DNA of 61,278 nt, counting the filler, from Stramenopiles sp. TOSAG23-6 (Eukaryota): the NCBI GenBank assembly GCA_900128565.1. It is 19 parts of 19 records of this genome, joined end to end, with 100 filler letters (N's around TTAATTAATTAA, not from the genome) between each part and the next. Parts side by side here need not be neighbours in the genome. Positions count along the whole stretch, not along the records: positions 25,960 to 29,096 come from LT637644.1; 18 more parts are not named here. One strand, written 5' to 3'. The notes under the pieces are model-generated. The model was not told the DNA's origin, ran no database searches, and saw only the letters and a list, made by a program, of their open reading frames with translations. Shown here one piece after another: positions 1 through 51,832 of this stretch (positions are counted from its first letter, which is position 1; every line of letters starts with the position of its first letter). Made by a program: the position numbers and the translations under genes.

Positions 1-32
1 AATAAATTAATAAATTCATGATGAAAACGTAC

Positions 33-3063: not shown

Positions 3064-3196
3064 CTGTATTTTAAAAAAATATTTCAAAAAAAATCTAAAA
3101 AAAATCGTTAGGTACAAAATTTACTATAAAAAAAAAAAAAATTTCAAATTAANNNNNNNNNNNNNNNNNNNNNNNNNNNNNNNNNNNNNNNNNNNN

Positions 3197-3309: not shown

Positions 3310-4732
3310 ACCCTTCTCTTTTCTACCAGTCTCTTTGATCCCACAACCACCACATAAAACCAAAGCAACCGCAAGTTTAACCATTAGCATACCACAAATT
3401 TGAGGACATAAACTTTTTAATATGTGATTCCTTCCTGCAATTGGACGACTTTCGTTTGATTTTTGCTTTTGAATTTCAATCCAAAAGTGCCAAAAATCAG
3501 CAAATTCATCGCGCATTTCATCGGTTAAAAAGACACCCCCAGATTCAGAAGAGTTGCTTACGTATTGTGAAAAAATATTTTTTTTTCGTAAAAAAATCGT
3601 TAGGTACAAAATTTTTATAAAAAAAAAAACCGAAATTGAAAAAAAATGAAACATACACTCTGACACTATTAGCTAAGATGACCAACTCGACTTGGCAACG
3701 ATCTTTTTTCTTTAGAGGAAGCCAGGTATTGTAAAATAATATGTCAAAAAAATAAAATGCGTTAGATTTTTTTTTGTACATAAAAAGTTTTAATTTTAAA
3801 ATGATTTTTTCTTGAAATAAATGTGGGAGACGGATTTAAAAAAAAAAAAAAATATTTCATACGAAATTTTGTACCTAACAAAAAAAAAAACATCGTCTCA
3901 TCACCATTCCTGTTACAATGACGTCATCGCCAGCTTTACATGTGTCCACCATATCATTTTGCATTAATACAGTTACTTGTCTAGGTATCATACCAACACT
4001 AAGACTACTACACCTCTCTTGGATGCGGATTTCTTGGTAATCGCAGCAAATGCGAGATCCTTCCACAAAGTCAAATTTCCCAGATTTGCACTTACGACTT
4101 CCTGGAGCGTTTACACCATCATTAGAAGGACAAGTTTTTGGCATATCAATCACTCCACCCTGAGCTAGATCAGCAGTTACTGTAAAGGAATACCCACAGC
4201 GAGAGCTCGAGCATTTATACACCTTTGACTGCTCAAGCATTTTAACCACTCCAGTTCTAATGACTGTACCTGGAAGCTCGAGGAAGGAACCATAATCTGA
4301 AGAGCGCACTGCACTTACATTTTTTCTAGTGAAACCTGGTGGTAGATATGCTATGCGAACATGACAAAATGGCTTTAATGTTAGGTCTCGTTTTTCCATA
4401 GAAAGCGAATAATTCCGTGATTCGTTGAGTTGTGACTGTTGAGAGGTGTATGATGCAACGAATCTTCGTTGTGCTTCTAATAGAGCACGATCAAATACAG
4501 GTAGTATTCTATCTGCATAAAACAAAGTTAAAGTGCCAACACGTTGAAAATCCTCTAGTAACCACTTTGCACACACAGTAATACCAAAGTGATCTCTGGA
4601 GTCGCCTTCTGTCACAAGAGCTTCAACTTCATCTATATACCGGTTTTCCAAAAATGTAACAAAGTTTTCCTGAAAAACTTCTTCTTCTATTCCGTCGAGA
4701 CTATAGATACAATTATTTGTGGACCCATTCAT
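3310..4732 (-). CDS. MCM9: MCM9 helicase, 5' part (exons 4732-3892, 3723-3657, 3559-3310)
   Basis: GTVIRTG, zinc-finger cysteines, DYQEIRIQE, IPR, DMVDTCKAGDDV, RW..RCQVELVILAN, RNHILKSLCPQICGMLMVKLAVALVL. Confidence 0.88.
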
Positions 4733-5074: not shown

Positions 5075-6350
5075 ATGAATTATCAAGACGATCATTCTAT
5101 AGAAAGTAGTCAAATTCGTGCAGACGCAGTGAGAGAGAAGATACAAAGATCTACTACACTTAGATCCGAAGAGGAAAAGCACCGACGTCGACATCAGGAG
5201 AAGCAAAGGAAACGATTGAAAAAAGAAAAAAATCGGAAAAAACGAGAGGAGGAATCAAAGAATAACAGTGGTCCGGAGGTGGATACTACATCTATAGATA
5301 CTTCTTCGTATTCAGATAATACTTCTACAGATACAAAGAGCAGTGAATTACCTTCAGAAACAACAGAACTCCCCCAGATTGTCAAGGAAAATAAAGACAT
5401 AAATTTGTTATTAGAGCCACCGCGATTTCGCACAATACACCTTATTATCCATTTAATTGGAATTACAGTTGTTATCATTGGCGGAGGGTATGTGTTTAGT
5501 GCACTCGAACTCAAAAACGAGAAAGTGAGAGCAGAAAGATTTTGGACTCAACAAAATTTAGTGGATGAGTACCTACGTCAATCGAACGCACAATATAAGA
5601 AACTCATTTCTGGAAATTATAATGAAAAAGACTCATTACTTAGTATTCATTCTCCTGATAGCACAATACAAGAAGTAGTTGGACTTGTACCAACTTACCT
5701 TTATGAAAAATTACTACGTATTGGCAAGGGAATACAGAACTCTCCTACCAAAGATTTAAACGATGAAAGAAAGGATGAAAAAATTGTTCCAATTCCTCAA
5801 ATCAAATCTGATCAACCAAAATGGAGTTTCCCTCAATCTGTGTTTTTCATGTTTTCCGTATTTTCGACGCTAGGATACGGTGGTGGTACTTGGGCACCGG
5901 CGACTGCCGCTGGTAGAGCCTGGATTGTACGTTTTCAAAATGAATTTCGTTTTTTTTTACTATGAAAATTTTGTACCTAATAATTTTTTTGACTATAATA
6001 TTTTTCACAATACTTGCGCTTTGTGCAACATTTGGAATTCTTTATTTTCTCATAACACTAAGTTATATGGCAGAAAGGTTACTAACAGCCGTACGAAGAA
6101 AGTTCCCAAAGTTTAGACCAAGCCTGCCACTTGCTGTATTGATGTTCATTTATTTTTTTCTCTTTACATTTGTAGCAGGTTTGTTGTCCAATTGGACGTT
6201 TCTGCAATCCGTATTTTTTACAGTCATGTCATTGACTACGGTTGGTATTGGGGAGTCTCCTCGTTTTCAGACGGATAAAGTTAAAGGAATTTTAGCATAT
6301 GGTGTATATAGTATGCTTGTCGTATTTGGTCTGACTATAGTAATTGCTAT
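5075..6350 (+). CDS. Two-pore-domain (K2P-like) potassium channel (exons 5075-5926, 6016-6350; 3' end missing)
   Basis: GGYVFSALE, WSFPQSVFF..STLGYG..PAT.AGR and a second pore WTFLQSVFF..LTTVGIG. Joined by intron 5927-6015. Confidence 0.85.
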
Positions 6351-6558
6351 GTATGTTTTATTTTTTTTTAACAAAAAAATCGATTTTTTTTTTCGTACGA
6401 AATNNNNNNNNNNNNNNNNNNNNNNNNNNNNNNNNNNNNNNNNNNNNTTAATTAATTAANNNNNNNNNNNNNNNNNNNNNNNNNNNNNNNNNNNNNNNNN
6501 NNNCGTACGAAATTTTATACCTAACGATTTTTTTTTGAAATATTTTTCCAAAATACAT

Positions 6559-9781: not shown

Positions 9782-11120
9782 AGTTGATGAATTTCGACAT
9801 CAATCGCAGGAGTATAACCAGATAAAATAACGGCGGAATATAGAGCTGATGTATTGTGAAAACATATTTCAAAATGATTTTGTTAGGTAATTTCATACTA
9901 AAAATATTTTCAAAATGGTTTTTTGTTAGGTACAAAATTTCGTACGAAAAATATGTTTTTGATAAAAACGTACATAATCGTACAAGTTGCTCACAAATAT
10001 GTTTTGGTGGTGGTTCAAGAGTTGGCATTTTTTCATTTATTTTATTTGGAAAATTCGATTCTTTTGAATTTGGCAATTTAGTTGTCAATCTAACTGATGG
10101 AGGTATAGAAGTGGATACAATTGTCACCGAATTTACTTGGTAAATTTGGGGTGCTTTTTTTCTATGAGTTGAATTTGAAGTCGAACTCGACGTACTACTA
10201 CTTTTGGATGTTTTCGATATGGTAGATGTATTGTGAAAAAAAAATGTTTTTGGTAGAAAAAATTCGTTAGGTATAAAATTTCGTATGAAAAAAAATAAAT
10301 TTGAAATTCAATGATGAAAACGTACATGCATTCAATTTATTCGACCCGACTGAATCATTATCTGAATCAAGGTCAAAACGGCGAATTGTTAAACTATTTT
10401 CATCTGTTGATATTTTGAGCTGTTTTAGTGAGTTTGAAACGCTTTCTACACGATGTATTATGAAAAAAAAAATTTTTTTTGTTGAAATTCGTTAGGTACG
10501 AAATTTGGTACAAAATATTTTTTTGAAATGAATGATGAAAAACGAACTTGCTTCTGAGGCGTGACAAGAGCAGCCTCTAGGAGATCTGTATGCGCTACTC
10601 CAACCAATTTTGAAGGACCTGAGCATGAAAATGTTGGATTTTTGCTTAATGACTTTGTTGACGGATCAACGTGTGTCGTGGTAATTCGTCTTCCATTTTT
10701 TACACGTTGTCTATTTCGAGAGTTTCCGAGATTTGATTCACAAGGCAAAACCTGAACACTCTGAATCATATTGATGGGTTGACATTTTTGTGAAATCAAA
10801 GGTCTATTACTAGACGTATCGATTGAGGCCACTATTGATCGATCTTGACAATTACTCGGTTCAGTTGCAGCATTTAAAATTCTATTCGAGTGCTTACGGA
10901 CAAAGTTTAGAATAAGGCAAGCCAACTTTGATGGAGGGAGATCCATTTTTTTTTTATTCGCCATTACATCTTCTCGAAAATCACTGCTTGGATTTGGAAG
11001 ACGATTCATAAATGATTGAGGAGCGCTTTTCCATATATGAAGTACTGAGTCACGGAGGGAGGCTTTTCCAGATACAACTAGTGATATAGTGTCTTGGGAA
11101 TCACTGTCCATTTTGGACAT
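9782..11120 (-). CDS. Codanin-1-like protein, 5' part (exons 11120-10548, 10452-10326, 10225-9974, 9848-about 9782)
   Basis: LILNFVRKHSNRIL, RRITTT and spliced RLSALYSAVILSGYTPAIDVEI resemble conserved codanin-1 blocks. Three GT-AT introns keep one open frame. Confidence 0.55.
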
Positions 11121-12835: not shown

Positions 12836-13034
12836 ATGGATTATGAAAAAATATTTCAAAAAAAAAAACTAAAATTTGTTAGGTACAAAATTTNNNNNNN
12901 NNNNNNNNNNNNNNNNNNNNNNNNNNNNNNNNNNNNNTTAATTAATTAANNNNNNNNNNNNNNNNNNNNNNNNNNNNNNNNNNNNNNNNNNNNTTTTTTT
13001 TTTTTTTTGGTAAAAACAATTTTTTACCTAACGA

Positions 13035-13082: not shown

Positions 13083-15409
13083 TGGAGAAGTTTGGTTTGG
13101 AAAATGGAATCGTGTTGATGTTGCTATAAAACGTTTTTTTCGTCCAAATGATTTTATTGATGATGAAAATTTACTTTTTGAAGAAAAGACTAGTTTTGAT
13201 GATGAAGAAATCTCAGTTTTTATGAAAACATCAAGACATAAAAGAATTGTATGTTTTTATGGTGCTGGCATTGATTCAGAAGGAAGAGAATTTATGTATG
13301 TTTTATTATTTTTCAATTTCGAATTTTTTTTTTCGTACGAAATTTTGTACCTAACGATTTTTTTTTGAAATATTTTTCTACAATACATGGTGTCTGAATT
13401 TATGGAAGGTGGGGCATTGTCGGATTTATTATGGGCAGAACCAAAAACAGTGATACCATGGGAAATGAAATTAATGTACTGTCGTGATATTGCAGAAGGA
13501 ATGGGTACGTTTTCATCATGAATTTTAATTTTGTTTTGATTTATTTCATACGAAATTTAAAATTTTGTACGTAATATAATTTTTATTTTTTTTTATTCGT
13601 ACCTAACAAATTTCAAATTTTTTTAAATATTTTTCACAAAACATCTTATTTACATAGAAATGGAGTGTTGCATAGAGACCTAAAGACCCCTAATATTCTT
13701 CTTGATATGAATGGAAATTGTAAAGTTGCTGATTTTGGTTTATCTAAAGTATTTGATAAAACTCTGGCAAGAAGAAAAAGTATAGGTTCAATACATAAAA
13801 ATAGTGAAATAGTATGTAATGATGTATTGCTTGAAAAAGAAGAAAAAAGAGACAATTGGTTTTCATCGCTTCGGAATCGAATCAAAACAATATGTAGTTT
13901 TTCTCAAAGTAATAAAAACAATACAAATGATAAAATTGTATCGTTTGATTCAAACCAAAAACAGCAAATAGATCAAAATAAAAATGTAACCAAAATCATA
14001 CCTCATGAAAAATGTATTGTACACAAAAATAATACTAAAACATCATTAAAAACTGAAATATCTAAAAATAATACTAAAAAATCATTAAAAACTGAAATAT
14101 CTAAAAAAAAGAGACCTGACGAAAATGATATAAAGGAAACAAAAGAATCGAATTTTTCAATTAGTAGTAGTATTTCAACACCCACAGTAGTGTTTCATCG
14201 AAGAAAAAAACATTTAAATAATGTATGTTTTCAAAATTGAATTTTTTAATCCATATTTTTTTTCATACGAAATTTTGTACCTAACAAGTTTTTTTTGTAG
14301 AAAAACAAAATATTTTTCACAAGACATGAAACTGCAAGTATAAGAAGAAGTAGTCGTTCGAATGATTCAAATGATTTCAATGATTCAGAAGATTGGAAAG
14401 ATTTTGAACAAACAATGACAACTGGAGTTGGGACTCCTTCTTGGATTCCACCTGAATTACAATCTTCAAACTCAAANTATGTACATTTTCATTTCAATTT
14501 CGAATTTATTTTCTTTTTCATAAAAAATTTCGTACCTGAAAAAATAAAAAATTTTAATATTTCTTCACAAATTATACTCGCTATGGTCACTATATTGATG
14601 TGTATGCATATGGAATTATTATGTGGGAAATTATGACTCAGGAACTACCTTGGCAGGAATATGTACATTTTCATCATTAATTTCAATATTTTTTTTTACT
14701 ATGAAAATTTTGTATCTAACTAAAAAATCAAATTTTTGAAATATTTTCCTAAAAATACAGAATCATTGGGCAGATATTCGGAGAGCTGTGAATAAAGGTC
14801 AACGACCAAAATCAGATAAAGAAGCAAAAATACGATTGAGTGCACCTGTTGGGTATTGTGAACTGATGGAAGAATGTTGGGATGTACGTTTTCATTATGA
14901 ATTTCAAATTTATTTTTTTTAGAAAAAATTTTACCTAATGTTTTTTTTTTAGATAATACTATTTTTTATCATGAATTTCAATTTTTTTTTTTTTCTAAAA
15001 AAAATATTTACCTAATCAATTTCAACATTTGACAACATATTTTTCACACTATATCAAGATCCTTTGAAAAGACCAGATTTTGAAAATATTTTCGACCGTG
15101 TATCAAGAATGTACGTTTTAATTATGAATTTCAAATTAATTTTTTTTTCGTACCAAATTTTGTACCTAACGATTTTCTTTTTTAAATATTTTTTCACAAT
15201 ATATGACTATACGGAATTCAGCGACATCACAAAAAGACAATTTTGCTTTGGATATGATTGATGAAACATCTGAAACTAATAGCTCAAATAATTCTAATAA
15301 TAACAACTCTATTGTGATTAATGTGATAGACACGAAATCTCAATCACNTATTGATGTTCTTTGTGGTAGTAATTGTAGTGATTCATTGATTGCTGACGAT
15401 GTGATGTAG
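13083..15409 (+). CDS. TKL-family protein kinase, catalytic domain and tail (8 exons; 5' end missing)
   Basis: [59 protein letters not shown]. Introns 13296-13388, 13505-13644, 14223-14327, 14481-14575, 14663-14760, 14884-15054, 15111-15204. Confidence 0.92.
13296..13388 (+). mobile_element. Representative introner-like intron (GT-AT); more than 45 full or partial family members in the window
   Basis: GTATGTTTT...TTTCGTACGAAATTTTGTACCTAAC...GAAATATTTTTCTACAATACAT, preceded by exon AT. Confidence 0.75.
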
Positions 15410-17291: not shown

Positions 17292-17574
17292 ATGACAACA
17301 TCAAAAAATTGGTTAGAAGGCATCAAATTTGCGGAGCAGGCCATACAATTTGAAGAGGAAGGGAGTTTACAAGCAAGCAACGCAACTTTCATTAAAGCTC
17401 TTGACTTACTAGTGAAAGGATACACCGCCTCGAAAGAAAAGGAAAAGGCCATAATGATGGATACACTTTCTTCTTATATGAAACAAGCGGAGGCGGTAAA
17501 AACACGGCTTACGTCTACTTGTGTAAGTGTTAACGATGGAGCTTTACGTTTCTCAGGTCCGATAGACGAATCAT
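17292..17574 (+). CDS. MIT-domain protein, exon 1 (mirror copy 18042-18324). A second MIT exon lies scrambled at about 17686-17930.
   Basis: GIKFAEQAIQFEEEG..ATFIKALDLL..YMKQAE and GIKCVKRAIEVDGEG..LYVKACDFF fit MIT three-helix domains. Confidence 0.7.
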
Positions 17575-18599
17575 GTATGGGGCAAAATAATTTTTTTTAG
17601 TAAAAAAAATTGTTAGGTACATAATTTTATATGAAAAAAAATAAATTTGAAATTAAATTGGTAAAAAATTAAAATGAAAACGTACATGCTGAAGAGCAGA
17701 AACAAAAAAATCACAAGCTTTCACATACAAATTCATGGCGAGTGCTGTTTTGCCTTCACCATCAACTTCTATTGCACGCTTCACACATTTTATACCGGTT
17801 TCATAACTAGTATGAAGTTTACTACTAGAACATTCAGCGTGCAATAGAAGTTGATGGTGAAGGCAAAACAGCACTCGCCATGAATTTGTATGTGAAAGCT
17901 TGTGATTTTTTTGTTTCTGCTCTTCAGCATGTACGTTTTCATTTTAATTTTTTACCAATTTAATTTCAAATTTATTTTTTTTCATATAAAATTATGTACC
18001 TAACAATTTTTTTTACTAAAAAAAATTATTTTGCCCCATACATGATTCGTCTATCGGACCTGAGAAACGTAAAGCTCCATCGTTAACACTTACACAAGTA
18101 GACGTAAGCCGTGTTTTTACCGCCTCCGCTTGTTTCATATAAGAAGAAAGTGTATCCATCATTATGGCCTTTTCCTTTTCTTTCGAGGCGGTGTATCCTT
18201 TCACTAGTAAGTCAAGAGCTTTAATGAAAGTTGCGTTGCTTGCTTGTAAACTCCCTTCCTCTTCAAATTGTATGGCCTGCTCCGCAAATTTGATGCCTTC
18301 TAACCAATTTTTTGATGTTGTCATTATTTTGGCGCAGATGAAATAGTAGATTGTAATCCTATATTAATTAATGGAGAGCTGCAGCTAATGAACAATGGCT
18401 GAACAATGATGTCAACATCAATAATAATTATTGTAGGTAATATTGTCAAGTTGTCAACAAACACGTGCCACGTGGCCAGTCAAAAAAAAAGGTTTTTGTT
18501 TTCAAAGAAAGAGTCAACAACAAAGAAGAAGAAAGAAACTCTCTTGTCTTGTTTAATGTTAAACATATATTTCGATTGAAGACGAAATTTATTTTTAAA

Positions 18600-19799: not shown

Positions 19800-21039
19800 A
19801 TGAATAGTCTACCCCCACTGCCAGAAGCTCTTCGAAAACATGCGACTGTCGCTGCAACGCGAGTGTGGCAGTCACTTTTACCTGCACGGACCAAAGCTTC
19901 TTGGGCTCTTTGTAGAATCCCTCCTTGGATAGGTTTTGTACGGCATCATCCAGTATCCGAACCTTGTAGGATGGTATTTCTTGCGCTTAAAATTAGTGAT
20001 TGGGAATTAAAAATACTGCATCGTGTTTTTCTCATGATTGACGAAGACAAGAGTGGTTTAGTTAGTTTACATGAGTTCTACAAGTTTTTCAAATTTTTTC
20101 AAGTGACTACAATGGTATCTTATAGTTTTTAGAAAACATACTGTAGCAGCACTATTATTTTTCATAATTATCCTTATTTATTTCATTATGATGTATTCAT
20201 TACACACAAAACATGGATGCCGAATATTTCATTTTTTTGATGCAAATGGAAAGCGAGAATTAGATTTTCATTCTTTTGTAGTTTGTGCTTGGTGCTTCTG
20301 CTATAATGATGAAGAAGATATTCTTGCATTTATCTTTGACTTATACGACGAAGATAACAGTGGTGGTATGGATTATCATGAATTAAAAGAATTCTTCACA
20401 CAAGTAAATGGTACCGCAAAAAAGATACCTTTCAATACCACTGAACTTCTTGAATTATATTATGGAACAGAGGACGTCTTGTCCAAAGAAAATTTCATAG
20501 ATTGGGTCATGCAACATAAATGTAGCTTTACTCCTATATTTTCACTACGAAAGGCCATGCGAGTTCGTATATTTGGATCTGTGGTATGGTCGCCTAAATA
20601 TAGACCCCCACCGAGATTTTTGACAAATACTTATTTAAAGCAGTGTTTAGCAAAAGACAAAAATCTAAAATCTGTACCAAATATTGAAGAAGATGACTTT
20701 GATTGGAAACAAACCACATTTGATAATGTGAGTCATAATAGTCTGACTAATTGTATTGGTGGTCGAGAGAGATGGAAAGCGAATTATGAAATGAAACTGT
20801 GGAGAATGAAAAGAGATAAGTACGGAAGAGAATTTTGGTACAACACAAAAACAAAAAAAGTCCAATGGGAAAAACCAGATTTTAGGCCTGAAAAATGGCA
20901 GCAACCAGAATATAAACAATGGAAACTGAGAATGTGGAAAAAAAGGAGGAAAAAACAAGCTTTGATTAGAAGATTAAATATGTTAAGTAAACAAGCATCA
21001 TTTGAAGAAGAAGATTTGTTGCTTGACGAAGATTTATAG
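19800..21039 (+). CDS. EF-hand (calcineurin-B/recoverin-like) protein with WW domain (exons 19800-20114, 20215-21039)
   Basis: DEDKSGLVSLHE, DANGKRELDFHS, DEDNSGGMDYHE; WW domain WRMKRDKYGREFWYNTKTKKVQWEKP. Confidence 0.85.
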
Positions 21040-25026: not shown

Positions 25027-25797
25027 ATGTCTTCGTCTAGTTCGTCACCGGGTGCAAATCATTGTGAAAAGTTGCGCGTTTTATTACGAGCCAACGGTGG
25101 TTTGTTAGCTCGTTTACATTTTTTGCGACGCAATGTTGATACTGCAGATAATACTCCAAAATGTATGGTGTCAAAGGAATATAAGCCAATTGTGTCGTTT
25201 TTGGATAAAAAATTCCCCGCAATTGACGTGGAGGTGCAGTGTGCGAAACATTACCCAGTGTTTTTAAATAATGCTCAAACAATTATGGAAGAATTGGAGA
25301 CACATTATCGAACTTTATTGGATGTGATGGATTTTGGTTATGCTGCATTGAAATTCCTTCGTGAAATTTTCGACTCTCTTTGGCTTTTAAATTTTAGGTG
25401 CAACAGGCGCCTGACAGCGGATGCACTCGACCTTATGGTCGGATATTCTTCTATCCACATCTTACTTTCAGACTTAAAGCGTGCCAAATTATTAGTTTCT
25501 TTATATGGTGCCGCATATCAAGCTGTTCATAAGCAAGAAGAAAAAGAATACAGAAGTATTTGTGCATACATTAAAGAATTCACGAGACCCATTCAAAAAA
25601 TTCGTGTATGTTTTCATTTCAATGTCCAATATATTTTTTTGTACGAAATTTTGTACCTAACGATTTTTTTTACACCAAAAAAAAAAAAAATATATCTTCA
25701 CAATATATGAACAATTAAAACCTGGAGCTCATGTTTTAGGTATCGCTTTAGCAGAACTCGCTGCACCTTTGTCGGTCTGTACAGATTTTGCAAGAAT
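25027..25797 (+). CDS. NCKAP1: NCK-associated protein 1 (Nap1/Hem, WAVE complex), 5' part
   Basis: EKLRVL..GLLARL, KKFP, YRTLLDVMDF, N..LT...LDL. Intron 25606-25708 gives KIR|EQLKP. Confidence 0.85.
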
Positions 25798-25959
25798 GCA
25801 CGTTTTCATTATGAATTTCAAATTTATTTTTTTTTCGTACGAAATTTTGTACCTAACAANNNNNNNNNNNNNNNNNNNNNNNNNNNNNNNNNNNNNNNNN
25901 NNNTTAATTAATTAANNNNNNNNNNNNNNNNNNNNNNNNNNNNNNNNNNNNNNNNNNNN

Positions 25960-26204: not shown

Positions 26205-28114
26205 TTATTCTGTGATTTCAGTGGATTTTGATCCAGCAGCAAGTTGTTGATCTTCCATTTTTGTATTTACTGGAACTTCTGTGCCTGTGCCTACTTGGCA
26301 CTTGCTCAGTTTACAATTATCATTAATAACAACATTATGACAAATGATAGATTTTTGTAAGACACATCCTTCAGCAATTTTTACATTATCCATTATAATA
26401 CAATTTAGTATTTGACACTTTGATCCAACTATAATATTTTTCCCTGCAACACTATCCTTTAAAACAGATTTCTGTCCCAGATGAATATTTTCACCAACAA
26501 ATGAAGCACGAACATTTTTACTCCGACTCTGGTCATTCTCTTGATATTTTTTGGGTAATAAGTGAAACCATGAACATTCATGACTCTCCATAGGTGGAGT
26601 GAAATCAACAAATCCAAAATTTAAATCAGAGTAATGCTCAATACTATCAGCACGAGCACAGAAATACTTGGACGATGGCATTAATGTATTGTGAAAAAAT
26701 ATTTCAAAAAAAAAAAATCGTTAGGTACAAAATTTCGTATGAAAAAAATATTAAATTAGAAATTCATATAAACATACATATAGAATAACATCGAATAGGT
26801 TGATGATTAAAATTAGTCACCATGGATGAACCACTCACAAAATTTGCTGCTTCACAGGATCCAGTCACTAAAGATATATATTGGAAAATATTATAGAAAA
26901 AAAATTGTTAGGTACGGAATTTTCATACAAAAACAAAAATAATTTGAAATTGTGTAGAAAAAAAATCAATTTGAAATTGACCCTAACCCTAATGAAAACA
27001 TACATGCCGTATTAAATTTCATATATGATTGAACTACCTTAGATGGTGTAAACTGCGAACAATGTCCAGATATAGAAGAATTATTTTCAACTCTCATTCT
27101 TTCAATGAATTCTTCTGGAAGAGCTTTTATGTATTGTGAAAAAATATATTTTTTTTTTCAACAAATATTTGTCAGGTACAAAATTTTCATACAAAAAAAA
27201 ATAAAAAAAATGATGAAAACATACAAACCCCTAAATTGACGATGAACGAGATAGGGAACAAATTCCTCCTTCAACAAACGAATCTGTGGTAAATACTCAA
27301 GAAGACGGAGAGTCCAGTGTGCAAACACGTACAAATGCATATCCTCGACATCTGAGTGTATAGTCATTGAAGGCATACGTCTTAAAAGTGACTTTGGCAG
27401 CGCAAATTTTGCTTCTCTTCCGGGATCTTCAATGACACACAAAACACGACGTACGTCGTACACATCCAAATTTGAAGTCTTGCTTGTTTCTATTCCAGCT
27501 AAACCAACTATTTCGTGTACTTTCTTTTTCTTTACAGGTACAGGTGTTGCCTTTCTACCTTTCATTTTGCCTGCTGCTGCTTCACTATAGACTTTGTGCA
27601 TCATTGTCACTGCAGCACTTTGAAGTCGGTGCGCATCTACTAGCCTACATAAAACATCTTCACACACCAAATCACCAGCCATTACACAGAAATCTCCACG
27701 AATTTGATCTTTCAAAAAACGCAATACGTCGGCGGAACCTTGTGAAGCATCAACACCAATAACTTCAACCTTCAACTGGAAACAAAGAGATGTTGTATCC
27801 CTATTCGGACTATTTGTATTTTTTGCTACAGAAGTAGTAGAAATCGTCGTTGACCAAGATGAAGAATGTTGCTCAACATATGCTTGTACCGCTTTTGCGT
27901 GTGCAAACTCGACAGCAACCATAACATCTCTGAAACCTGCGCGCTCAAGGTTAGCTAGTTGATATGCTAAGAGTGGCTGATTACACACAGGTAAAAGTAC
28001 ATTTGGAATTGTTTCACTCAAAGGAGATAATACGTTTCCAATTCCAGCAGACATTAATATCGCTTGCAACGGCATCGGTCTACATGATGATAAAGTAGGC
28101 AATACAGATGTCAT
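26205..28114 (-). CDS. EIF2B3: Translation initiation factor eIF2B gamma subunit, complete (4 exons)
   Basis: LQAILMSAG..LLPVCNQPL, GSADVLR, DMHLYVF, PYLV.RQF, IRCYS, C-terminal hexapeptide beta-helix. GT-AT introns 27129-27224, 26874-27003, 26684-26777. Confidence 0.88.
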
Positions 28115-30494: not shown

Positions 30495-32333
30495 ATGCCA
30501 CGTAAAGTAATGACACACTCACGAGGTGCTGTTATTCTTCAAAGTATGTGGCGTGGTTGGGCGACACGAAATATTGCGCTTGATGTAGTAGAGTGTGTTG
30601 ATGCGAATGGTAGAGTTATATTATTAGAAACAGATTTCTCTGCTAACAAAAACTCAAGCGATGAAGCAGTAGAGATTTTAGCGTATGAAGCAGATCCACC
30701 GTATGGTGTTCTAGGGCTTTACAACCCTCTTAGTAATCTAGTAGTGCCTATTGATGAAACATCAGTGAATATAGATGTTACTATAGAAACAAAAGAAAAA
30801 GAAAAATTAGATTTGAAAAAGTCATTCAAGAATACGTTAGAATTGAATAATGAAACAAAAAAAAATAATGAATTGAATAATGAAACAAAAAAAAATAATG
30901 AATTGAATAATGAAACGAATACAGATATATCTATTATTGGTATTATTGATAAAAGTGTATATAACAATACTATAGAAATGCCTATAGGTAAAAACATGTT
31001 GAATGATGGAAAACATACAAATTACATACAAGAAAAATACAATGAAACAAAGGAGCAATTAGGGTTAAGGTTACAGGACCAATTTGGATTGGATGAAACA
31101 AATGAAACAAATGAATTAATAGACCAATTGACCGCAGTGGAACAATCATCATTAGGGTTAGGGTCAAATTCATTTCTAGATAATTTGTTACAAGATAATG
31201 AAATTAGAGATTTGCATGAGAATCCTCAAAACTCTGCAACTATAGAAATAGAATCAAAAAAATACGTTTTTTTTTTTTCAAAATTTTTTTTTTTTTAATT
31301 TTTTTTTCAAATTTTTTTTCATACAAATTTTTATATCTAACAATTATTTGTACAACTACGAATATTTTCTCACAATATATTGTAATAATGGATGAAACAT
31401 CAACCGTATCACAAGATAGAACATCAAAAGTAGAAAAAAAAACAAAAACAATAAACAATGAAAAAACAAAAGAATTAAAAAAATCAAAATTAACAAAATT
31501 AACAAAAGATGAGAAAAAACAAATCAAATCAAAAGTCATGACAGAAACATTTCATGTTTTAGAATCAGTTTTGAATGATATTTTATTGTCTCCACGTAAA
31601 CCTGATATTGTTGAACATTTTCCTCTACCTACAACAGTACAAGAATATCGTAATGACAAAGCAAATGCTTTACTCAATGTTCAAAATAACCCTAACCCTA
31701 GACAAAATAATCAAAATAATCAAAATAATCAAAATTCAGAATTATCTCCAATCAACAAAATTGATACATTTGATGATGATAGGGTTAGGGTTTCTAATGA
31801 AATATTATCACCAATAGATCGAAAAAGTATTGATCAAAAATGTAATGAATTACTCAAAAAACATAGAAATGCATTGTATGTATGTTTTATTTTTTTTTTT
31901 GAGCCTTAAAAAAAAATCGAATTTTTTTTTTTTTTAGTTTCATACGAAATTTTGTACCTAACAAATTTTCAAAATTTTTTTTTGAAATATTTTTCCAAAA
32001 TCCAGAATGATTCTGCTATTTTTTTGCAACATAGAAATATTTTATATAATATTGATCATAAAAAAGAAATGTACAATCCTAACCCTAACCCTAGAAGAAG
32101 ACGTCGAAAACGCACGAAACCTTCAACAATTAGATTACAAATGGAAAGAAATAATAATGAACTTCAAAAAAGTTTACGTATGAAATTTGATACAAATTCT
32201 ACAAATTCAAGACAATATAACCCTAACCCTAATGAATCTAGAGAATATTATATTTCAGATAGGCAAAACAGTCATGATAGACAATATAACCCTAACCCTA
32301 ATGAATCTAGAGAATATTATATTTCAGATAGGC
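30495..32333 (+). CDS. IQ-motif low-complexity protein (exons 30495-31261, 31381-31879, 32006-; copy on - strand from 37501)
   Basis: IQ motif AVILQSMWRGWATR; frames are joined by two family introns. Confidence 0.7.
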
Positions 32334-32503
32334 NNNNNNNNNNNNNNNNNNNNNNNNNNNNNNNNNNNNNNNNNNNNTTAATTAATTAANNNNNNNNNNN
32401 NNNNNNNNNNNNNNNNNNNNNNNNNNNNNNNNNTCGAAATTTGTTAGGTACAAAATTTCGTACGAAAAAATAAATAAATTTGAAATTCATAATGAAAACG
32501 TAC

Positions 32504-34740
32504 AGGCAGTTGAAAGTAAATTTTCCACAGTATCCGTATTTCTGCATGGTGTCATAATGATTTCATTGTTCAAACGAAATTCGACACAAAGTTTAATTTG
32601 TGAATTTGGCGGTTTGGCTATTTTTCTATCAGCATAAGACACGGATGATATTTCATTTTGTTTTTTTCTATCAGCATAAGACACGGATGATATTTCATTT
32701 TGTTTTTGTTTTTGATTTTGATAAAACTTCAATGTTGAATGTTTAGTTATTCTATTTTTGTTTCCATTCGTTTTGTTGTTCATCATAGAACTTGACTGGT
32801 ATTTTGATGTATGGTTATTTGTGGTGAAAAAATATGTGTTGTAGTAAAAAAAATCATTAGACTCAAAAATTAGGTACAAAAATATTTTTACGAAAAAAAA
32901 ATTAAAAAAAAAAAAAAAATTCAATTCAATTCAATTTTGAAAACGTATTGTTTCCAGTTGCTTTGACTTTTCAATACTATCTCGCGGCAGAACACGTTTT
33001 CTTACTAAATGTGATCGAATATTGTAACATATTGCATTATCTTTTCTACATCGCACAGTACACATTTTTTTATTAGAACTCCAACGTAAAATTTTACATG
33101 CTTCCCATGTGTTGTAAAAAATATTTTGATTTATTTCGTTAGGTACAAAATTCACTATGAAAAATAATATTTTGATTTATTTTGTTAGATACAAAATTCA
33201 CTATGAAAAAAAAATAAAATCGAAATCAATGATAAAAACGCACATAATCCATCCCAAATCCCAATATAATCAGAATTACAGGTTGCGATTTCATCTGGCC
33301 AACTTTTTCTATGTATTTTGGAAAAATATTTCAAAAAAAAAATGTTTTGTTAAGTACAAAATTTCGTACGAAAAAAAATCGAATTTGAAAAAAAATAAAA
33401 CATACATCGTTTTCTAAAGCACTGATGGCAGAATACCGTTTCATATTATTTCTTTCAATATTATTATTATGCTTTATTTTTGGCAAAATAGGGCACTCAT
33501 CCTCACTATCAGTACTACTTATAATAATGTTTCGATTTGGTTTTTGCTTTTTTTTCAATTTTTGGAATTTTGTATTTTTTTGCGTTTCGATGTCCTTCAT
33601 CAATTGGATAATTTGTCCTCGAAGTAAAAGTTCGTCTGACGTGTTCGTTCCATAATTAGAATCATTAGAAATACCATTTGCTGATACTACTCCACTGGTC
33701 TTACTTCGATTTATTCTATCCATCGCAATTTGTAAAGTTTTTAAACTTTTTTCAAAATTACCCATATTTTTCAAAATTTTACCTTGGTGATAACGTAACC
33801 GAGATTCATCTAATCGAGATTTCCGCCAATCAAACAAAAATTCAGATTGTAGTCGTACTGCATTTCGACTCTGATAATCTAAATTTAAACGGTGCGCAAC
33901 GAAACATTCATCAAATTGTGCTAATGTGTTATGAAAAAATATTTCAAAAAAATTGTTAGGTACAAAATTACGTACGAAAAATAAATTCGAAATTGAAAAA
34001 AAATTAAACGTACATGCTTCACTAGAAAAACCTAATTTATATAATACTTCACCAAGCGCGGCACAACAACGCAGAAGATAACAACATCGGATTTCATACA
34101 GAGTTGCAGCCATGACATCTGATTGTATATCGCAATCCAGTTTTATCAAAAGTGCTTTAGATAGTTCGAGAGCGTTACGAGCTTTAGAATATTGCCCAGC
34201 GTTAACAAGAATGTAGCCTAAATTCAACTCTGACTGACCTGGAATACAATCAACCATAGGCTTTTCACCCATATGTAGTTTCTCTGCAAGTCGAACACTC
34301 TTTTCAGCTAATAGTTGGGCATTGGTGTGTTTGCCATAATCACTTAAAGATAAGCCGTGGTTTGTCCATAACCGCCACTGTTCCAACTGATCGCTCTGTT
34401 TCAGTTTACCAGATACTCTTTGAAAGTGTTTCCCAGCTAGATCATAATTTTCCAGCGATGAAGTGCGTTGATTTAACGACTTCTGGGCATCTGCCAAACA
34501 ACGATAAGCTCTTGCGAAATCGAGAAGCCTTAAATTTTTTTTACTTTCACTTTTGGCATGTTGAAGAGATACTTTAAGAAGCGATACTTCTTTTTGATGA
34601 TAGTTTTCAGCCTTTTTGAAGATACCCTTGTCAAAGTAAACACGACCAAGTGAATTCAAGCAATCACACTCTTTACCAATGTCGTTTTCTCGCCTGGCTT
34701 GGGAAATTTTACTCTTGAGAAAGAGAATCTTATCATCCAT
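32504..34740 (-). CDS. TONSL: Tonsoku-like (TONSL) protein: N-terminal TPRs, Tudor-like segment, UBL-like segment; 3' end missing
   Basis: ECDCLNSLG..YHQKE..ARAYRCLAD TPR start; IKLCVEFRLNNEIIMTPC..TVENL. Introns 33924-34013, 33311-33405, 33107-33243, 32817-32948. Confidence 0.65.
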
Positions 34741-35486: not shown

Positions 35487-35994
35487 GTATGTTTTACTTT
35501 TTTTCAAATTCGATTTTTTTTCGTACGAAATTTTGTACCTAACAAATTTTAGTTTTTTTTTTTTGAAANNNNNNNNNNNNNNNNNNNNNNNNNNNNNNNN
35601 NNNNNNNNNNNNTTAATTAATTAANNNNNNNNNNNNNNNNNNNNNNNNNNNNNNNNNNNNNNNNNNNNCGGGTGACAACGTACATTGTAATTATCATTTT
35701 TATTATCATTTTTATTTTTTTTTGTTAGGTCTGAAATTGTTTTTTTTTTACAAAAAAAAAAAAAAAAATTTCAAAAAAATTTTAAAAAAAAATTTTAAAA
35801 AAATTTTAAAAATTTGAAATTTTTTTTGTAAAACATGTACAATATAAAATGTACATAAAATCATCAATATTACCTAAAGTTTGTTTCAGTATAGGAAAAT
35901 CTAATGATACAGTATATTCTTTCAAGTTTTCATCAGTCACAATAATATCAATGCCTTGCCACGTATGCATCTCTCGAACTTTTTTCGTGTATAT

Positions 35995-41886: not shown

Positions 41887-42223
41887 GTACGTTTCAACTC
41901 GTTCATTTTCGTGTGTTTATTTAAATATTTTTGTATGTGTTTTCAAAGTAACATGTATTTAGATGTGTCTTTTCCGTTATCATGTAAATTTCATTAAATT
42001 TTACAAAAAATATTTTTTCATAATTCATNNNNNNNNNNNNNNNNNNNNNNNNNNNNNNNNNNNNNNNNNNNNTTAATTAATTAANNNNNNNNNNNNNNNN
42101 NNNNNNNNNNNNNNNNNNNNNNNNNNNNTGGAAAAATATTTCAAAAAAAATCTAAAAAAAATTGTTAGGTACAAAATTTCGTATGAAAAACAAATCAAAA
42201 TTGAAAAAAAAAATAAAACATAC

Positions 42224-46180: not shown

Positions 46181-46281
46181 CTTGTATTTTGGAAAAATAT
46201 TTCAAAAAAAAAAACTAAAATTTGTTAGGTACGAAATTTCGTAGTAAAAAAAAACGAATTTGAAAAAAAATTAAAACATAC

Positions 46282-47668: not shown

Positions 47669-48379
47669 ATGTCTCCAGAAGATGCTTTAGCCAACACAAT
47701 GTGTGGAGGATTTTTGTTGTGTTTAGATTTTCCTCCGGGGGGAGAATTCAGTATTAATACTCATGCATGGACTTTAGGAAAGTCTTTCGGTGGTCTCAAA
47801 ATGATCCCTACTACTGGTGCTCCACATTTAGTTACTATGACTGCTGGTCCGCGTGCTCCTTCCCGGACTGGTATATTTTTAACTTTCAAGAAAGGAGAAG
47901 TCCGTATACTCCGTTGGGATGCATCAGAAGAAGTTGCTCGTTGTGTCGAATCTACAGATAAAGATTATGATAGATTAGTAAATGGTGTTCTTCGTTTTGA
48001 GTATGACGCTACACTTGCACCCTTCCCGGGTGCGTCGTTGAATAAGTGTGACGCAAATTGGCAACTTTTACTCGGATTAGTTGATACAAATACATTACAA
48101 CGGTGTAATATTCCCATAGGATTTTCAATTGTCCCCGGTGAATCTGTTAGTGAAACTGAAGATTCAAAGTTTCAATTTTTAGATTTAGATTACTTTCAAA
48201 AAAAAGCATTGAGCGTTATACAGAAAAATTCTGAAAACATTTCTGGCTCATATTTGACAAATATTCACATGGATGGTTCGAAGACACTAGATCAATTTTT
48301 TAGTTCAATGAAATCTGTGCAAGAGGGAGAGAACCATATACTTGCAGAGTTACAATTGTCCTTTGTACTCTTTGTGTAC
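47669..48379 (+). CDS. AAR2: AAR2 (U5 snRNP assembly factor), exon 1
   Basis: LLCLDFPPGGEF.I....W..G..F.GLKMIP..HL, D..LAPFP, D.S..L, ILAELQLSFV.F. Confidence 0.85.
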
Positions 48380-48565
48380 GTATGTTTTATTTTTTTTCAA
48401 ATTCCAATTGTTTTTTTTTCGTACGAAATTTTGTACCTAACAAATTTAAGTTTTTTTTTTGAAATNNNNNNNNNNNNNNNNNNNNNNNNNNNNNNNNNNN
48501 NNNNNNNNNTTAATTAATTAANNNNNNNNNNNNNNNNNNNNNNNNNNNNNNNNNNNNNNNNNNNN

Positions 48566-51500
48566 TTTTTTTTTTTTTTTTTTTTTGTTAGGTATGAAAT
48601 TTCGTATGAAAAAAAAAATTTCAAAAAAATTTCAAAAAAAAAAAAAAAATTGATGTTGAAAACGTACATGAGTTTGTTTACATCTATACAGAAATCGACC
48701 ACAAGATTCTAATAAAGTACAACAGAGAATAATATTATGATTTTTAAAATCAAATAATAAAAATTTAAGAAATGAAAATGTCATCGAAGGAGGACAAATT
48801 CCAAATTTAGTTAATTGACTGATATACCGAATATTTTTACATTTTGATTCTAATCGTGTTCCTACAAATTTCTTATTTAAATAATAAAATTCTTTTTTCA
48901 ATGCAGCGACTAAGTATTATGAAAAAATATTTCAAAAAAAAAAAAACTAAAATATGTTAGGTACGAAATTTCGTATGAAAACCAAAAAAAAAAAAATTAA
49001 ATTAGAAATTCATATAAAACATACAATGGAGGAACAATATCTGTAAATATTGGATTTAGAATTGCAGCAAGACGAGAATAATAAGGTAGTAATTCTGTCT
49101 GATTTCGTGATACTCTGAAAATAGCTTGGACTAATCTACATGTATTGTGAAAAAAATATTTTTTTTTTATAAAATTTGTTAGGTACAAAAAAAAAATTTC
49201 AAAAAAAATTCTAAAAAAATTGTTAGGTACAACATTTCGTACGAAAAAAAAAAATCGATTTTTTCTGAAAAAAAAAAATAAAAACATACGTCTTGCACTT
49301 CTCGAATTTAGATAACAAAAATCCACTGCAAATTTATCTATACTTCTTTTGGTACAACATTTTGGCAACTCTAATAAAAGCTCTTCTAGAGCTAAAGATG
49401 GTCTTTCTAATGTGACGTCATCAAATAAGGATTTCATACCAAAATTATCATCATCATCATCATCATCAACATCATCTTCATCTTCTGTCTCTTGTTTTTT
49501 ATTTGTAGTTGTTATAGGTATCGTTTTATTACTTTTTTTTACTGAATTTGAACTAGAAAATTGCGATAATGCATATATTGAGAAAACATATTTCAAAAAA
49601 AAAATAAATTTTGTTAGGTACAACATTTCGTATGAAAAAATATTTTGATAAAAATCATAAAAATCATAAAAATGATAAAAATCATAAAAATCATAAAAAT
49701 CATAAAAATCATAAAAATGATAAAAATGATAAAAATGATAAAAATCATAAAAATCATAAAAATCATAAAAATGATAAAAACATACATCATCTAGAGTACC
49801 TGCTTTAAATGATACTTCTGGATTTTCTTTAGGATTATTGCTTATCGATGATGCTCTTAACTTTCGTGCGTTTTCACGATCTTTTTTCTTACCATCATGC
49901 TCCTGTAACAAAATGTCTGGTACTTGTTCAGTAATATCAGCAATTTCTGTATAAAAACTTAATTCATCACCATCAGCAAATGGACCATCTACTGTATTGT
50001 GAAAAAATATTTCAAAATTTTTTTACCTAAAAAAAAAAATTGTTAGGTATAAAATTTACTATAAAAAAAAAAAAAAAAAAAAAAATTGATTTTTTTTGAA
50101 AAAAAAATTTGATTTTTTTTTAAAAAAAAATCAAATTTTTTTTTCAAAAAAAATCAATTTTTTTTTTTTTTTTTTTTTTTATAGTAAATTTTATACCTAA
50201 CAATTTTTTTTTTTAGGTAAAAAAATTTTGAAATATTTTTTCACAATACAGTAGATGGTCCATTTGCTGATGGTGATGAATTAAGTTTTTATACAGAAAT
50301 TGCTGATATTACTGAACAAGTACCAGACATTTTGTTACAGGAGCATGATGGTAAGAAAAAAGATCGTGAAAACGCACGAAAGTTAAGAGCATCATCGATA
50401 AGCAATAATCCTAAAGAAAATCCAGAAGTATCATTTAAAGCAGGTACTCTAGATGATGTATGTTTTTATCATTTTTATGATTTTTATGATTTTTATGATT
50501 TTTATCATTTTTATCATTTTTATCATTTTTATGATTTTTATGATTTTTATGATTTTTATGATTTTTATCATTTTTATGATTTTTATGATTTTTATCAAAA
50601 TATTTTTTCATACGAAATGTTGTACCTAACAAAATTTATTTTTTTTTTGAAATATGTTTTCTCAATATATGCATTATCGCAATTTTCTAGTTCAAATTCA
50701 GTAAAAAAAAGTAATAAAACGATACCTATAACAACTACAAATAAAAAACAAGAGACAGAAGATGAAGATGATGTTGATGATGATGATGATGATGATAATT
50801 TTGGTATGAAATCCTTATTTGATGACGTCACATTAGAAAGACCATCTTTAGCTCTAGAAGAGCTTTTATTAGAGTTGCCAAAATGTTGTACCAAAAGAAG
50901 TATAGATAAATTTGCAGTGGATTTTTGTTATCTAAATTCGAGAAGTGCAAGACGTATGTTTTTATTTTTTTTTTTCAGAAAAAATCGATTTTTTTTTTTC
51001 GTACGAAATGTTGTACCTAACAATTTTTTTAGAATTTTTTTTGAAATTTTTTTTTTGTACCTAACAAATTTTATAAAAAAAAAATATTTTTTTCACAATA
51101 CATGTAGATTAGTCCAAGCTATTTTCAGAGTATCACGAAATCAGACAGAATTACTACCTTATTATTCTCGTCTTGCTGCAATTCTAAATCCAATATTTAC
51201 AGATATTGTTCCTCCATTGTATGTTTTATATGAATTTCTAATTTAATTTTTTTTTTTTTGGTTTTCATACGAAATTTCGTACCTAACATATTTTAGTTTT
51301 TTTTTTTTTGAAATATTTTTTCATAATACTTAGTCGCTGCATTGAAAAAAGAATTTTATTATTTAAATAAGAAATTTGTAGGAACACGATTAGAATCAAA
51401 ATGTAAAAATATTCGGTATATCAGTCAATTAACTAAATTTGGAATTTGTCCTCCTTCGATGACATTTTCATTTCTTAAATTTTTATTATTTGATTTTAAA

Positions 51501-51677: not shown

Positions 51678-51832
51678 NNNNNNNNNNNNNNNNNNNNNNN
51701 NNNNNNNNNNNNNNNNNNNNNTTAATTAATTAANNNNNNNNNNNNNNNNNNNNNNNNNNNNNNNNNNNNNNNNNNNNAAAAAATTTTGTACCTAACAATT
51801 TTTTTTTTTTTAAATATTTTTCCGCAAAATAT

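Follow-up and report, generated by a model that had tools for sequence, protein, structure and literature searches.

Introners are the best-supported source of new introns, and those of marine algae are said to have been the subject of work by Huff and colleagues in 2016. They have been recorded in 201 species and 1,093 families (PMC12130899), and some are described as taking their 3' splice site from a target-site duplication (TSD) (PMC9860276). Here, we report introns in the genome of Stramenopiles sp. TOSAG23-6 (GCA_900128565.1) that appear to form a real introner-like family with non-canonical GT-AT ends. The stretch of DNA analysed (hereafter the window) comprises 61,278 bases, made up of 19 contigs of ~3.1 kb each, longest first, which are separated by N44-TTAATTAATTAA-N44 linkers.

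In the account of Gozashti et al. (2022; PMC9860276), the introners of Micromonas, Aureococcus, Chrysochromulina, and Symbiodinium are short, non-autonomous, near-identical introns that lie in unrelated genes and are gene-enriched; they occur in very large numbers, some of them carry one splice site and gain the other from target duplication, and their removal restores the reading frame. The window family is broadly like them, but these algal and protist introners have GY-AG ends, TSDs of 3-9 bp, and terminal inverted repeats (TIRs) often of at least 6 nt, whereas the window family has a 3' AT, any duplication would be of 2 nt, and the inverted repeat spans 3-4 nt. Ascomycete introner-like elements, as treated in the same source, share with it their shortness, strong gene bias, and lack of TSD and TIR, but are GT-AG-ended and belong to another lineage. 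Introns of the larvacean Fritillaria most often end in AT (F. pellucida, 44%; F. borealis, 34%) and are processed by a U2-type spliceosome; a YAY triplet both precedes their 5' site and makes up their final three bases, comparable to the (Y)AT|...CAT| of the window family. According to the available sections of that work (PMC13326754), however, the main Fritillaria classes begin with AG rather than GT, the host is an animal, and no single 95-nt template is described. The introner elements of Amoebophrya are repeated non-canonical introns of a marine protist with short direct repeats over their borders, but a hairpin forms from their 8-20-nt inverted repeats and their end dinucleotides are of many kinds (PMC7789003), against 0 pairs and a canonical 5' site here. 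Nonconventional introns of euglenids and some diplonemids have non-GT-AG borders, short direct repeats at the junctions, and a suspected origin from miniature inverted-repeat transposable elements (MITEs); as described, they lack a U1-complementary 5' site and need paired ends (PMC6221363, PMC12621601), whereas the window family has GTAYGT, a branch motif, and ends that do not covary. Reliance on paired ends, reported for the non-canonical introns of Amoebophrya, euglenids, and hemistasiids, thus separates them from the window family, which has none. Full-text literature searches, with supplements outside their scope, found no description of a GT-AT introner or of the motifs of the window family.

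Copies of the core GTACCTRAC number 43 in the window, where shuffles predict 0.31, and an nhmmer profile built from one copy finds 58 matches, to which donor-only fragments at contig ends add more. An earlier note on this DNA had seen dozens of introns in unrelated genes built on one ~95-nt template, almost always in sense orientation, and both statements hold: of the copies in genes to which Pfam or PDB matches assign a strand, 41 of 41 run in sense. Without duplicates (copies in palindromic or duplicated stretches were entered one time each in all counts), the catalogue lists 39 complete introns, along with 18 copies that a contig end or an N gap truncates (Table 1). One complete intron is non-family, and the non-redundant family copies number ~56 (38 complete, 18 cut). 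The family core is present in sense in 37 of the 39; the others are 3724-3891, which has a family 3' end and an antisense core fragment, and 20103-20214, which is core-less with a similar 3' end. Complete introns have a median length of 101 nt, with 20 of the 39 falling in the range 89-101 nt.

The template runs, in order, GTAYGTTT, a conserved block ending TACCTAAC, a T-run, CACAATAC, and two further bases. At the 5' end (n=39) G1 is found in 36 introns, T2 in 39, A3 in 34, Y4 in 36, G5 in 34, T6 in 39, and T6-T8 in 38-39. A variable region of 25-40 nt follows and defines subfamilies, three of which are discernible in the 5' third of the copies. The internal block reads TTTTTC(G/A)TACGAAATTTTGTACCTAAC, of which ~22 nt, C(G/A)TACGAAATTTTGTACCTAAC, are conserved, and GAAATATTTTT often comes next after the T-run. 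A branch-like motif is present in 33 of the 39 introns at a median of 40 nt before the 3' end (33-49 nt in 32 of the 33), and the 3' end follows the consensus C-10 A-9 C-8 A-7 A-6 T-5 A-4 C/T-3 A-2 T-1. In the copy alignment, conservation is strongest at the 5' site, branch block, and 3' box.

Clustering of the introns, which the earlier note had proposed as a check, reveals likeness from end to end and subfamilies. Pairwise identity among 32 copies of up to 140 nt has a median of 70% and reaches 92% over ~90 nt between 13296-13388, in a kinase gene, and 33311-33405, in an unrelated TPR gene. Likeness between copies stops at the intron-exon borders, and the flanks are unrelated. Thus, the copies have the two features of introners in Gozashti et al. 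(2022), end-to-end likeness of many introns in unrelated genes and the bounding of that likeness by intron-exon borders, and their sequences indicate common descent, not mere convergence on splice signals. Seventeen of the 36 internal contig ends lie inside a family copy, as would be expected of an assembly interrupted by a high-copy repeat.

Positions 25960-29096 were compared with contigs from three RNA runs and one independent seawater DNA run. In the DNA run, 2,973 contigs fell on this 3.1-kb stretch, nearly all of them on intron bins, and word depth was 99,310 in an intron bin versus 7.4 in exon bins, a hint of copy number and not a count. The copy number is very high, and the depth hints at "thousands." Other copies in this run part from the window copy at 26683/26684, which is its 3' border (21 loose ends). 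No empty insertion sites were found among the joints in the runs, which are cross-matches between copies, not excisions. RNA-library contigs include intron copies joined to other exons (e.g., the loose end at 26684, X7), with an intron-bin depth of 17,410 in X6; these may be unspliced RNA or carried-over DNA. Two small DNA runs of a single sample, possibly the source, contain nearly all of 25960-29096, and in three seawater metagenome runs of a second study, 0.30-0.72 of the sampled words from this stretch were present. The 19-nt core had 3 matches in metagenome contigs, unrelated and due to chance, and the 17-nt core had 6 single matches in viral contigs, taken as chance.

To place the 3' borders, the donor was fixed at |GTAYGT and the acceptor class was slid, with the frame open through 60 nt on each side. 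The class two bases past the A(T/C)A(C/T) box leaves the frame open in 29-30 of 34 introns, compared with 11-15 for the other two classes, and it accounts for 12 of the 14 introns in which a single class is open. The exceptions are 35991-36116 (a chimeric duplicate), 46181 (AG one base on), 26874 (a one-base longer AT run), 32838-32948 (an AT-AC-like copy), and one flank containing an N. The two bases after the CACAATAC box are AT in ~2/3 of copies and otherwise AG, TT, or CT. Among the GT-donor introns 26 of 36 end in AT; across all 39 complete introns, 31 have T as their final base, 6 have G, and 2 have C. AG stands in the register of AT in 5 copies and one base beyond it in a sixth (46181-46281).

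Protein homology fixes two of these junctions to the codon, both at loci whose exon and intron ends differ. The kinase exon before 13505 ends ...DIAEGM, aligned with ...GIASGM of LIMK2 and ...VCEGM of ITK, and the next exon resumes YLH...; with one split codon (G|CT) between GM and YLH, the GG is exonic and the AT (before CTT) intronic. In the MCM9 gene, an exon ends ...GDDVIVTGMVMRR, aligned to residue 247, and the text from the last intron base, W-LPLKKKDRCQVELVILANSV, aligns to residues 248-268 of the same chain. This match has an E-value of 1.1 alone, but it is the sole match and its numbering is contiguous with the preceding exon. The codon of W248 is T|GG across 3891..3724, and this is therefore a GT...CT intron. 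Pfam profile coordinates do not fix the TT..TT borders to the codon, and these introns stand on frame evidence; at 5927-6015, we take the spacing from K+ channel filter to hinge glycine to fit the TT..TT border. The Nckap1 junction (25606-25708) has R versus M in the human protein and is uninformative. A homologue search set to longer lengths had no match; one set to near lengths gave a relative with 51% identity, P0003, which diverges after ...HRQFRG and so does not decide the junction at 27224.

The copies share with U2-type introns a GT(A/G)(N)GT donor, a branch motif, and a run of pyrimidines, but not the AG at the 3' end: 31 of 39 are T-ended and 6 of 39 G-ended. From frames and homology, we infer that the family copies are spliced as U2-type introns whose last base is mostly T. 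In U12-type introns, the donor reads (A/G)TATCCTT and the branch site lies 10-15 nt before the 3' end; this identity was rejected on the GTAYGTTT 5' site and the median of 40 nt between branch-like motif and intron end. Three copies (31262-31380, 32838-32948, and 52645-52754) start ATACGT instead of GTACGT, and by frame two of the three end in C (AC in 32838-32948, TC in 52645-52754), which recalls the first-last base rule of AT-AC introns.

The intron ends GTAT(GT) and (ACA)ATAC had also been read as a short inverted repeat. The regular pairs are G1-C(-3), T2-A(-4), and A3-T(-5), i.e., GTA/TAC, and this much of the claim stands; since GTAC is the start of about half the copies, the fourth pair is present in 12 of 22, and covariation between the ends does not rise above that in shuffles (245-281 of 500 shuffles were as high). 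The RNAalifold consensus of the copies has 0 pairs and no conserved hairpin, and a hairpin or end-pairing model was rejected on these two results. The canonical 5' site and the 0 pairs also set the copies apart from the euglenid type, in which paired ends occur without a U1-type 5' site.

The exon ends in AT before 25 of the 36 GT-donor introns, compared with 9.5% AT in coding sequence (P 5e-18), and before 8 of 14 truncated copies. AT before the donor and AT at the intron end are thus the rule, as the earlier note had it. The pattern before the donor is general across introns, like AG|gt..ag|, and not locus-specific. For AGgy..xyag, Gozashti et al. (PMC9860276) describe an ambiguity between duplication and consensus. 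AT..AT across introns is ambiguous in the same way, between duplication and an insertion-site or splice-site consensus; as AT is its own reverse complement, AT..AT cannot separate duplication, an extended inverted repeat, and consensus.

Comparison of the exon and intron ends with shuffles, also proposed earlier, gives a divided answer. The match at position -2 exceeds the shuffles (30/36 vs. 25.2, P 0.002), the match of the whole dinucleotide does so less clearly (21/36 vs. 18.3, P 0.07), and there is none past 2 nt. Among ends other than AT or AG (TT..TT at 5927 and 49024, GT..GT at 3656, AT..CT at 3891/3724), the exon dinucleotide is repeated in three of four (P 0.001). The same proportion had been claimed before, and its two TT..TT cases persist, but the one given at 51219 is the palindromic duplicate of 49024, and the GT..GT case is open to doubt: a gap-free alignment of MCM9 residues 268-271 requires an in-frame AG at 3557, three bases past the GT end at 3560, and the intron at 3656 probably uses this AG. 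Without the GT..GT case the values are 20/36 for the dinucleotide (P 0.18), 29/36 for position -2 (P 0.013), and 2/3 for the rare ends (P 0.0095). The locus-specific signal of duplication is therefore weak, depending on 2-3 introns, two being TT..TT. Counter-examples are more numerous than the two listed earlier, with a non-AT exon end before 8 of 26 AT-ended introns (AA twice, GT twice, GG, TT, AC, and CT). Mismatching copies have an identity to the consensus of 0.756 versus 0.807 for matching ones, a difference that is not significant (P 0.10). In all mismatches but one, the intron end is AT or AG and the exon end is different; duplication would fit selection in which the intron end is pulled to A(T/G) and the exon is held by coding.

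We consider it probable that the family is an introner-like element supplied with a 5' site, branch block, and 3' box of its own, the cut falling two bases past the box. These spliceosomal introns would descend from one ~90-100 nt non-autonomous mobile template ("introner"), which would supply the 5' splice site GTAYGTTT, the ~22-nt block with its branch-site-like end, the T-run, and the CACAATAC box. The 3' cut would fall exactly two bases after the box; since those bases are AT in ~2/3 of copies, most copies would be GT-AT introns, and a U2-type spliceosome would tolerate either T or G in the final intron position. The data show common descent, the intron borders, the sense-only position in genes, and the very high copy number, and from them we infer mobility and in vivo splicing. 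Several observations weigh against this reading. The copies contain no TIR of at least 6 nt, as would mark a TIR DNA transposon or MITE. The window holds no full-length antisense or intergenic copy, and occurrence in both orientations and outside genes, likewise a mark of such transposons, is limited to fragments (3855-3881 antisense, 7365-7429, 41201-41228). Neither a transposase, for which the earlier note had suggested searching by the family ends, nor a reverse transcriptase was found in the 48 open reading frames (ORFs) scanned in the window. RNA contigs on 25960-29096 are exon pieces only (26164-26414, 28386-28615, 28763-29056) and bridge no junction, so that splicing and the AT acceptor are read from frames and homology. 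Finally, all 39 complete introns, the core-less 20103-20214 included, carry the common end motifs; part of the similarity is therefore splice-signal constraint, the ends doubling as splicing signals.

For the spread of such an element we give equal weight to two routes, neither of which we would call probable: insertion at an AT or NT target that duplicates two bases, with one of the two copies turned into the intron end, or an element that ends in its own AT and lands preferentially after AT, possibly through RNA. Tentatively, the family could be a cut-and-paste, MITE-like DNA transposon with GTAT..ATAC ends, inserting at AT so that the second copy of the duplication forms the last two intron bases. 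The two TT..TT introns (5927/6015 and 49024/48912) among the three secure rare ends, the excess at position -2, and the slightly, though not significantly, greater divergence of mismatching copies point that way, as does the use of the TSD as 3' splice site by known introner families (PMC9860276). Against it stand the AT-ended introns after other exon ends, near-consensus 53317-53411 among them, the dinucleotide match close to that of shuffles, an inverted repeat that is GTA/TAC only, the lack of a transposase and of full antisense or intergenic copies, and the self-complementarity of AT, which leaves AT..AT undiagnostic of duplication. Rather doubtful is an RNA-mediated introner, a spliced intron that re-enters transcripts at an AT|G resembling ligated exons and is copied into DNA, with its own AT end and no duplication. 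The uniformly sense copies, none clearly intergenic, and the want of real TIRs or a hairpin agree with such a route, and an exon AT| (25/36) followed by G (15/39) resembles a splice-junction consensus; ascomycete introners of the same profile are so interpreted in PMC9860276. It would, however, leave the two TT..TT introns to chance (P ~0.01), no reverse transcriptase is among the ORFs scanned, selection against unspliceable antisense insertions would also explain the sense bias, and an antisense core fragment lies at 3855-3881. That a single AT-targeting element made nearly the whole intron complement, ~10^3-10^4 introns, we regard as unlikely; the 3' cut would then be positional, two bases past CACAATAC whatever the bases (AT, TT, CT, AG), so that the 2-base target duplication would serve directly as the intron end and the symmetry AG|...AG| would have become AT|...AT|. 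The earlier note had proposed that an AT-targeting element created GT-AT introns en masse: the introner-like family of mostly GT...AT introns stands, but transposon-style ends and a 2-base duplication are not established.

Two other readings fare worse still. It is very improbable that these are old, ordinary introns made alike by long and unusual end and branch signals of the spliceosome. The end motifs common to all 39 introns and the good preservation of 5' site, branch block, and 3' box would suit such introns, but the likeness extends through non-signal parts, with subfamilies and the pair at 92% identity, the assembly breaks within the element at 17 of 36 contig ends, and thousands of near-identical contigs occur in environmental DNA. 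Scarcely credible is a family of unspliced segments or of segments resembling internal eliminated sequences (IESs), removed from a somatic genome. Spliced RNA contigs were none among those seen, and many copies are flanked by short direct repeats, but GTAYGT, CTAAC 33-49 nt from the end in 32 of 33, and the T-run are U2-type anatomy; AG takes the place of AT in five copies, and a sixth has it one base further along; of the three copies with an initial A, two end in C in the manner of AT-AC introns; and the window has a standard genetic code and nothing ciliate-like. The IES reading was rejected on the intron anatomy of the copies.

Published introner surveys draw on annotated introns, set aside families with unfamiliar splice sites that lack transcript support, and, as outlined in PMC12130899, accept only AG and AC as 3' ends. 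A family with T for G as the last intron base could escape surveys of this type. If RNA data confirm the introner-like family, it would join Fritillaria as an independent second example of predominant 3' AT usage by a U2-type spliceosome. It would also offer a natural series of AT, AG, TT, and CT at a fixed position for the study of 3' site choice, and thousands of copies with which to test whether target duplication supplies a non-canonical splice site. Gene finders that demand GT-AG would mis-annotate almost every gene of this organism, and the repeat breaks short-read assemblies, as the contig ends show.

Table 1. Introns and copies of the family in the window, given as exon end / intron start...intron end; "mismatch" marks a complete AT-ended intron after an exon end other than AT.
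Positions	Strand	Gene or context	Feature	Basis of border
1..32	-	window start	copy 5' part, AT / GTACGT, cut by window start	
84..240	-	GDP-mannose dehydratase	family intron, AT / GTAAGT...CTACAG, internal CCTAAAAA repeat (run in 100-200)	
2079..2156	-	WD40	copy 5' part, TT / GTACGT, cut by N gap	
2238..2427	-	WD40	family intron, 190 nt, AT / GTACGT...GACAATAC-AG	
3064..3152	-		copy 3' part, ...AAAATAC-AG, cut by contig end	
3253..3309	-	MCM9	copy 5' part, GT / GTATGT, cut by contig end	
3560..3656	-	MCM9	family intron, GT / GTATGT...CACAATAC-GT	MCM9 alignment favours in-frame AG at 3557
3724..3891	-	MCM9	composite intron, AT / GTTTTT...TACAATAC-CT, weak donor	R247/W248 of MCM9
5927..6015	+	two-pore K+ channel	family intron, 89 nt, TT / GTACGT...CACAATAC-TT	
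6351..6403	+		copy 5' part, AT / GTATGT, cut by contig end	
6504..6558	+	EF-hand	copy 3' part, ...CCAAAATAC-AT, at contig start	
9849..9973	-		family intron, 125 nt, AT..AT, core doubled	
10226..10325	-		family intron, 100 nt, AT..AT	
10453..10547	-		family intron, 95 nt, AA / GTTCGT...CATAATAC-AT, mismatch	
12836..12893	-		copy 3' part, ...CATAATCC-AT, cut by contig end	
13296..13388	+	kinase	family intron, 93 nt, AT..AT	
13505..13644	+	kinase	family intron, 140 nt, GG / GTACGT...CACAAAAC-AT, mismatch	kinase ...GM/A/YLH...
14223..14327	+	kinase	family intron, 105 nt, AT..AT	
14481..14575	+		family intron, 95 nt, AT / GTACAT...CACAAATT-AT; flank has an N	
14663..14760	+		family intron, 98 nt, AT / GTACAT...AAAATAC-AG	
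14884..15054	+		family intron, 171 nt, AT..AT, two partial tandem copies	
15111..15204	+		family intron, 94 nt, AT..AT	
17573..17685	-	aldehyde dehydrogenase	family intron, 113 nt, AT..AT; mirror copy in other arm of palindromic contig	
20103..20214	+		core-less intron, AA / GTGACT...CACAAAAC-AT, mismatch, family-like 3' end	
25606..25708	+	Nckap1	family intron, 103 nt, GT / GTATGT...CACAATAT-AT, mismatch	
25798..25859	+		copy 5' part, GC donor, AT / GCACGT, cut by contig end	
26684..26777	-	eIF2B-gamma	complete family intron, 94 nt, AT / GTATGT...CACAATAC-AT	only +2 frame class open
26874..27003	-	eIF2B-gamma	family intron, ~130 nt, AT / GTATGT..., contains TTAGGGTTAGGG	
27129..27224	-	eIF2B-gamma	complete family intron, 96 nt, TT / GTATGT...CACAATAC-AT, mismatch	
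31262..31380	+		copy with ATACGT start, borders uncertain	
31880..32005	+		family intron, 126 nt, AT..AG; duplicate 35991-36116 has different 3' part (chimeric join)	
32434..32503	-		copy 5' part, CT / GTACGT, cut by contig end	
32838..32948	-		copy with ATACGT start; end ...CTACAAC (AT-AC)	reading frame
33107..33243	-	TPR	family intron, 137 nt, AT / GTGCGT...ACAACAC-AT, core doubled	
33311..33405	-	TPR	family intron, 95 nt, AT..AT	
33924..34013	-		family intron, 90 nt, AT..AT	
35487..35568	+	kinesin	copy 5' part, AT / GTATGT, cut by contig end	
38900..38950	-	seipin	copy 5' part, AT / GTATGT, cut by contig end	
39704..39799	-	seipin	family intron, 96 nt, AT..AT	
41887..42028	+		longer intron, TG / GTACGT...CATAATTC-AT, reaching contig end	
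42129..42223	-	WW-domain	copy 5' part, AT / GTATGT, cut by contig end	
45354..45385	-		copy 5' part, AT / GTATGT, cut by contig end	
45619..45711	-	RIC1-like	family intron, 93 nt, AT / GTACAT...CACTATAT-AT	
46181..46281	-		family intron, 101 nt, AT / GTATGT...AAAATAC-AAG	frame excludes +2 cut, permits AG at +3
48376..48465	+	AAR2	copy 5' part, cut by contig end	
48566..48667	-		copy 5' part, AT / GTACGT, cut by contig end	
48912..49024	-	MIF4G	family intron, 113 nt, TT / GTATGT...CATAATAC-TT; mirror copy at 51219	
49140..49289	-		family intron, 150 nt, AC / GTATGT...CACAATAC-AT, mismatch, core doubled	
49573..49785	-		family intron, 213 nt, AT..AT, TTTTTATGA/TTTTTATCA minisatellite inside (49640-49770)	
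51778..51829	+		copy 3' part at contig start, end ambiguous	
52157..52247	+		family intron, 91 nt, AT / GTAGGT...CACAATAT-AG	
52645..52754	-	FYVE/PH	copy with ATACGT start, ...CACAATAC-TC end (first A, last C)	
53317..53411	-		near-consensus family intron, 95 nt, GT / GTACGT...CACAATAC-AT, mismatch	
54980..55066	-		copy 5' part, TG / GTGAGT, cut by contig end	
55188..55280	-		family intron, 93 nt, CT / GTACGT...GAGCAC-AT, mismatch	
55434..55525	-		family intron, 92 nt, AT / GTTTGT...CAAAATAT-AT	
55613..55711	-		family intron, 99 nt, AT..AT	

Fragments of the family were also seen. The antisense core piece at 3855-3881 (+), 27 nt long, lies inside the minus-strand MCM9 intron 3724-3891, and the antisense strand of the core-less intron 20103-20214 contains GTATGTTTTC; each of the two could be what is left of an antisense insertion. 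At 41201-41228, a 26-nt palindromic piece of the core, TTTTGTACGAAATTTCGTACCTAA, lies between divergent genes and off any intron. The stretch 7365-7429 (-) has the core and T-run with no recognisable GTAYGT donor; it lies just upstream of the ORF 7054-7374, ends near CTTCAG, and may be an intron of the 5' untranslated region or a decayed copy.

The three introns at 26684-27224 belong to a minus-strand eIF2B-gamma gene (PDB match, E 1e-20). The second of them, 26874-27003, has its 3' border either at ATATAT| at 26874 or at an in-frame AG six bases beyond, and contains the telomere-like TTAGGGTTAGGG at 26975-26990.

The window has a GC content of ~31%, and its long ORFs can be read in the standard genetic code. 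Besides eIF2B-gamma, there are genes for MCM9, a TKL-type kinase, GDP-mannose dehydratase, WD40, kinesin, RIC1, and MIF4G, as well as Nckap1, FYVE/PH, aldehyde dehydrogenase, seipin, Sel1, TPR, and WW genes. VIT1, rhomboid, GBP, U-box, and AAR2 genes are also present, and all gene matches are eukaryotic. VIT1 and DUF1826 genes, both found in the window, we take to be rare in animals, the group to which Fritillaria belongs. Rfam families, small nuclear RNAs included, had no match anywhere in the window.

Two contigs are palindromic, 16237-19379 and 48566-51677, each being its own reverse complement (98% and 100%), and 29197-32001 is identical to the reverse complement of 35995-38799. The latter duplicate runs up to a point inside an intron copy, after which the two versions part. 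These palindromic and duplicated contigs look like amplification or assembly chimeras joined at the intron repeat.

Some long genes are free of introns: 8623-9648 (+), 11532-12377 (+), and 7677-8654 (-), with Sel1 repeats, VIT1, and DUF1826, adjoin intron-rich genes. The WW-domain ORF 42155-44872, of 906 codons, has a family copy at its end only. In the FYVE/PH gene, the frame shifts inside an A-run at ~52950-52980 (-) (...DDKSI* / KHLDTKSW...), probably because the assembly is off by one base there and not because of an intron.

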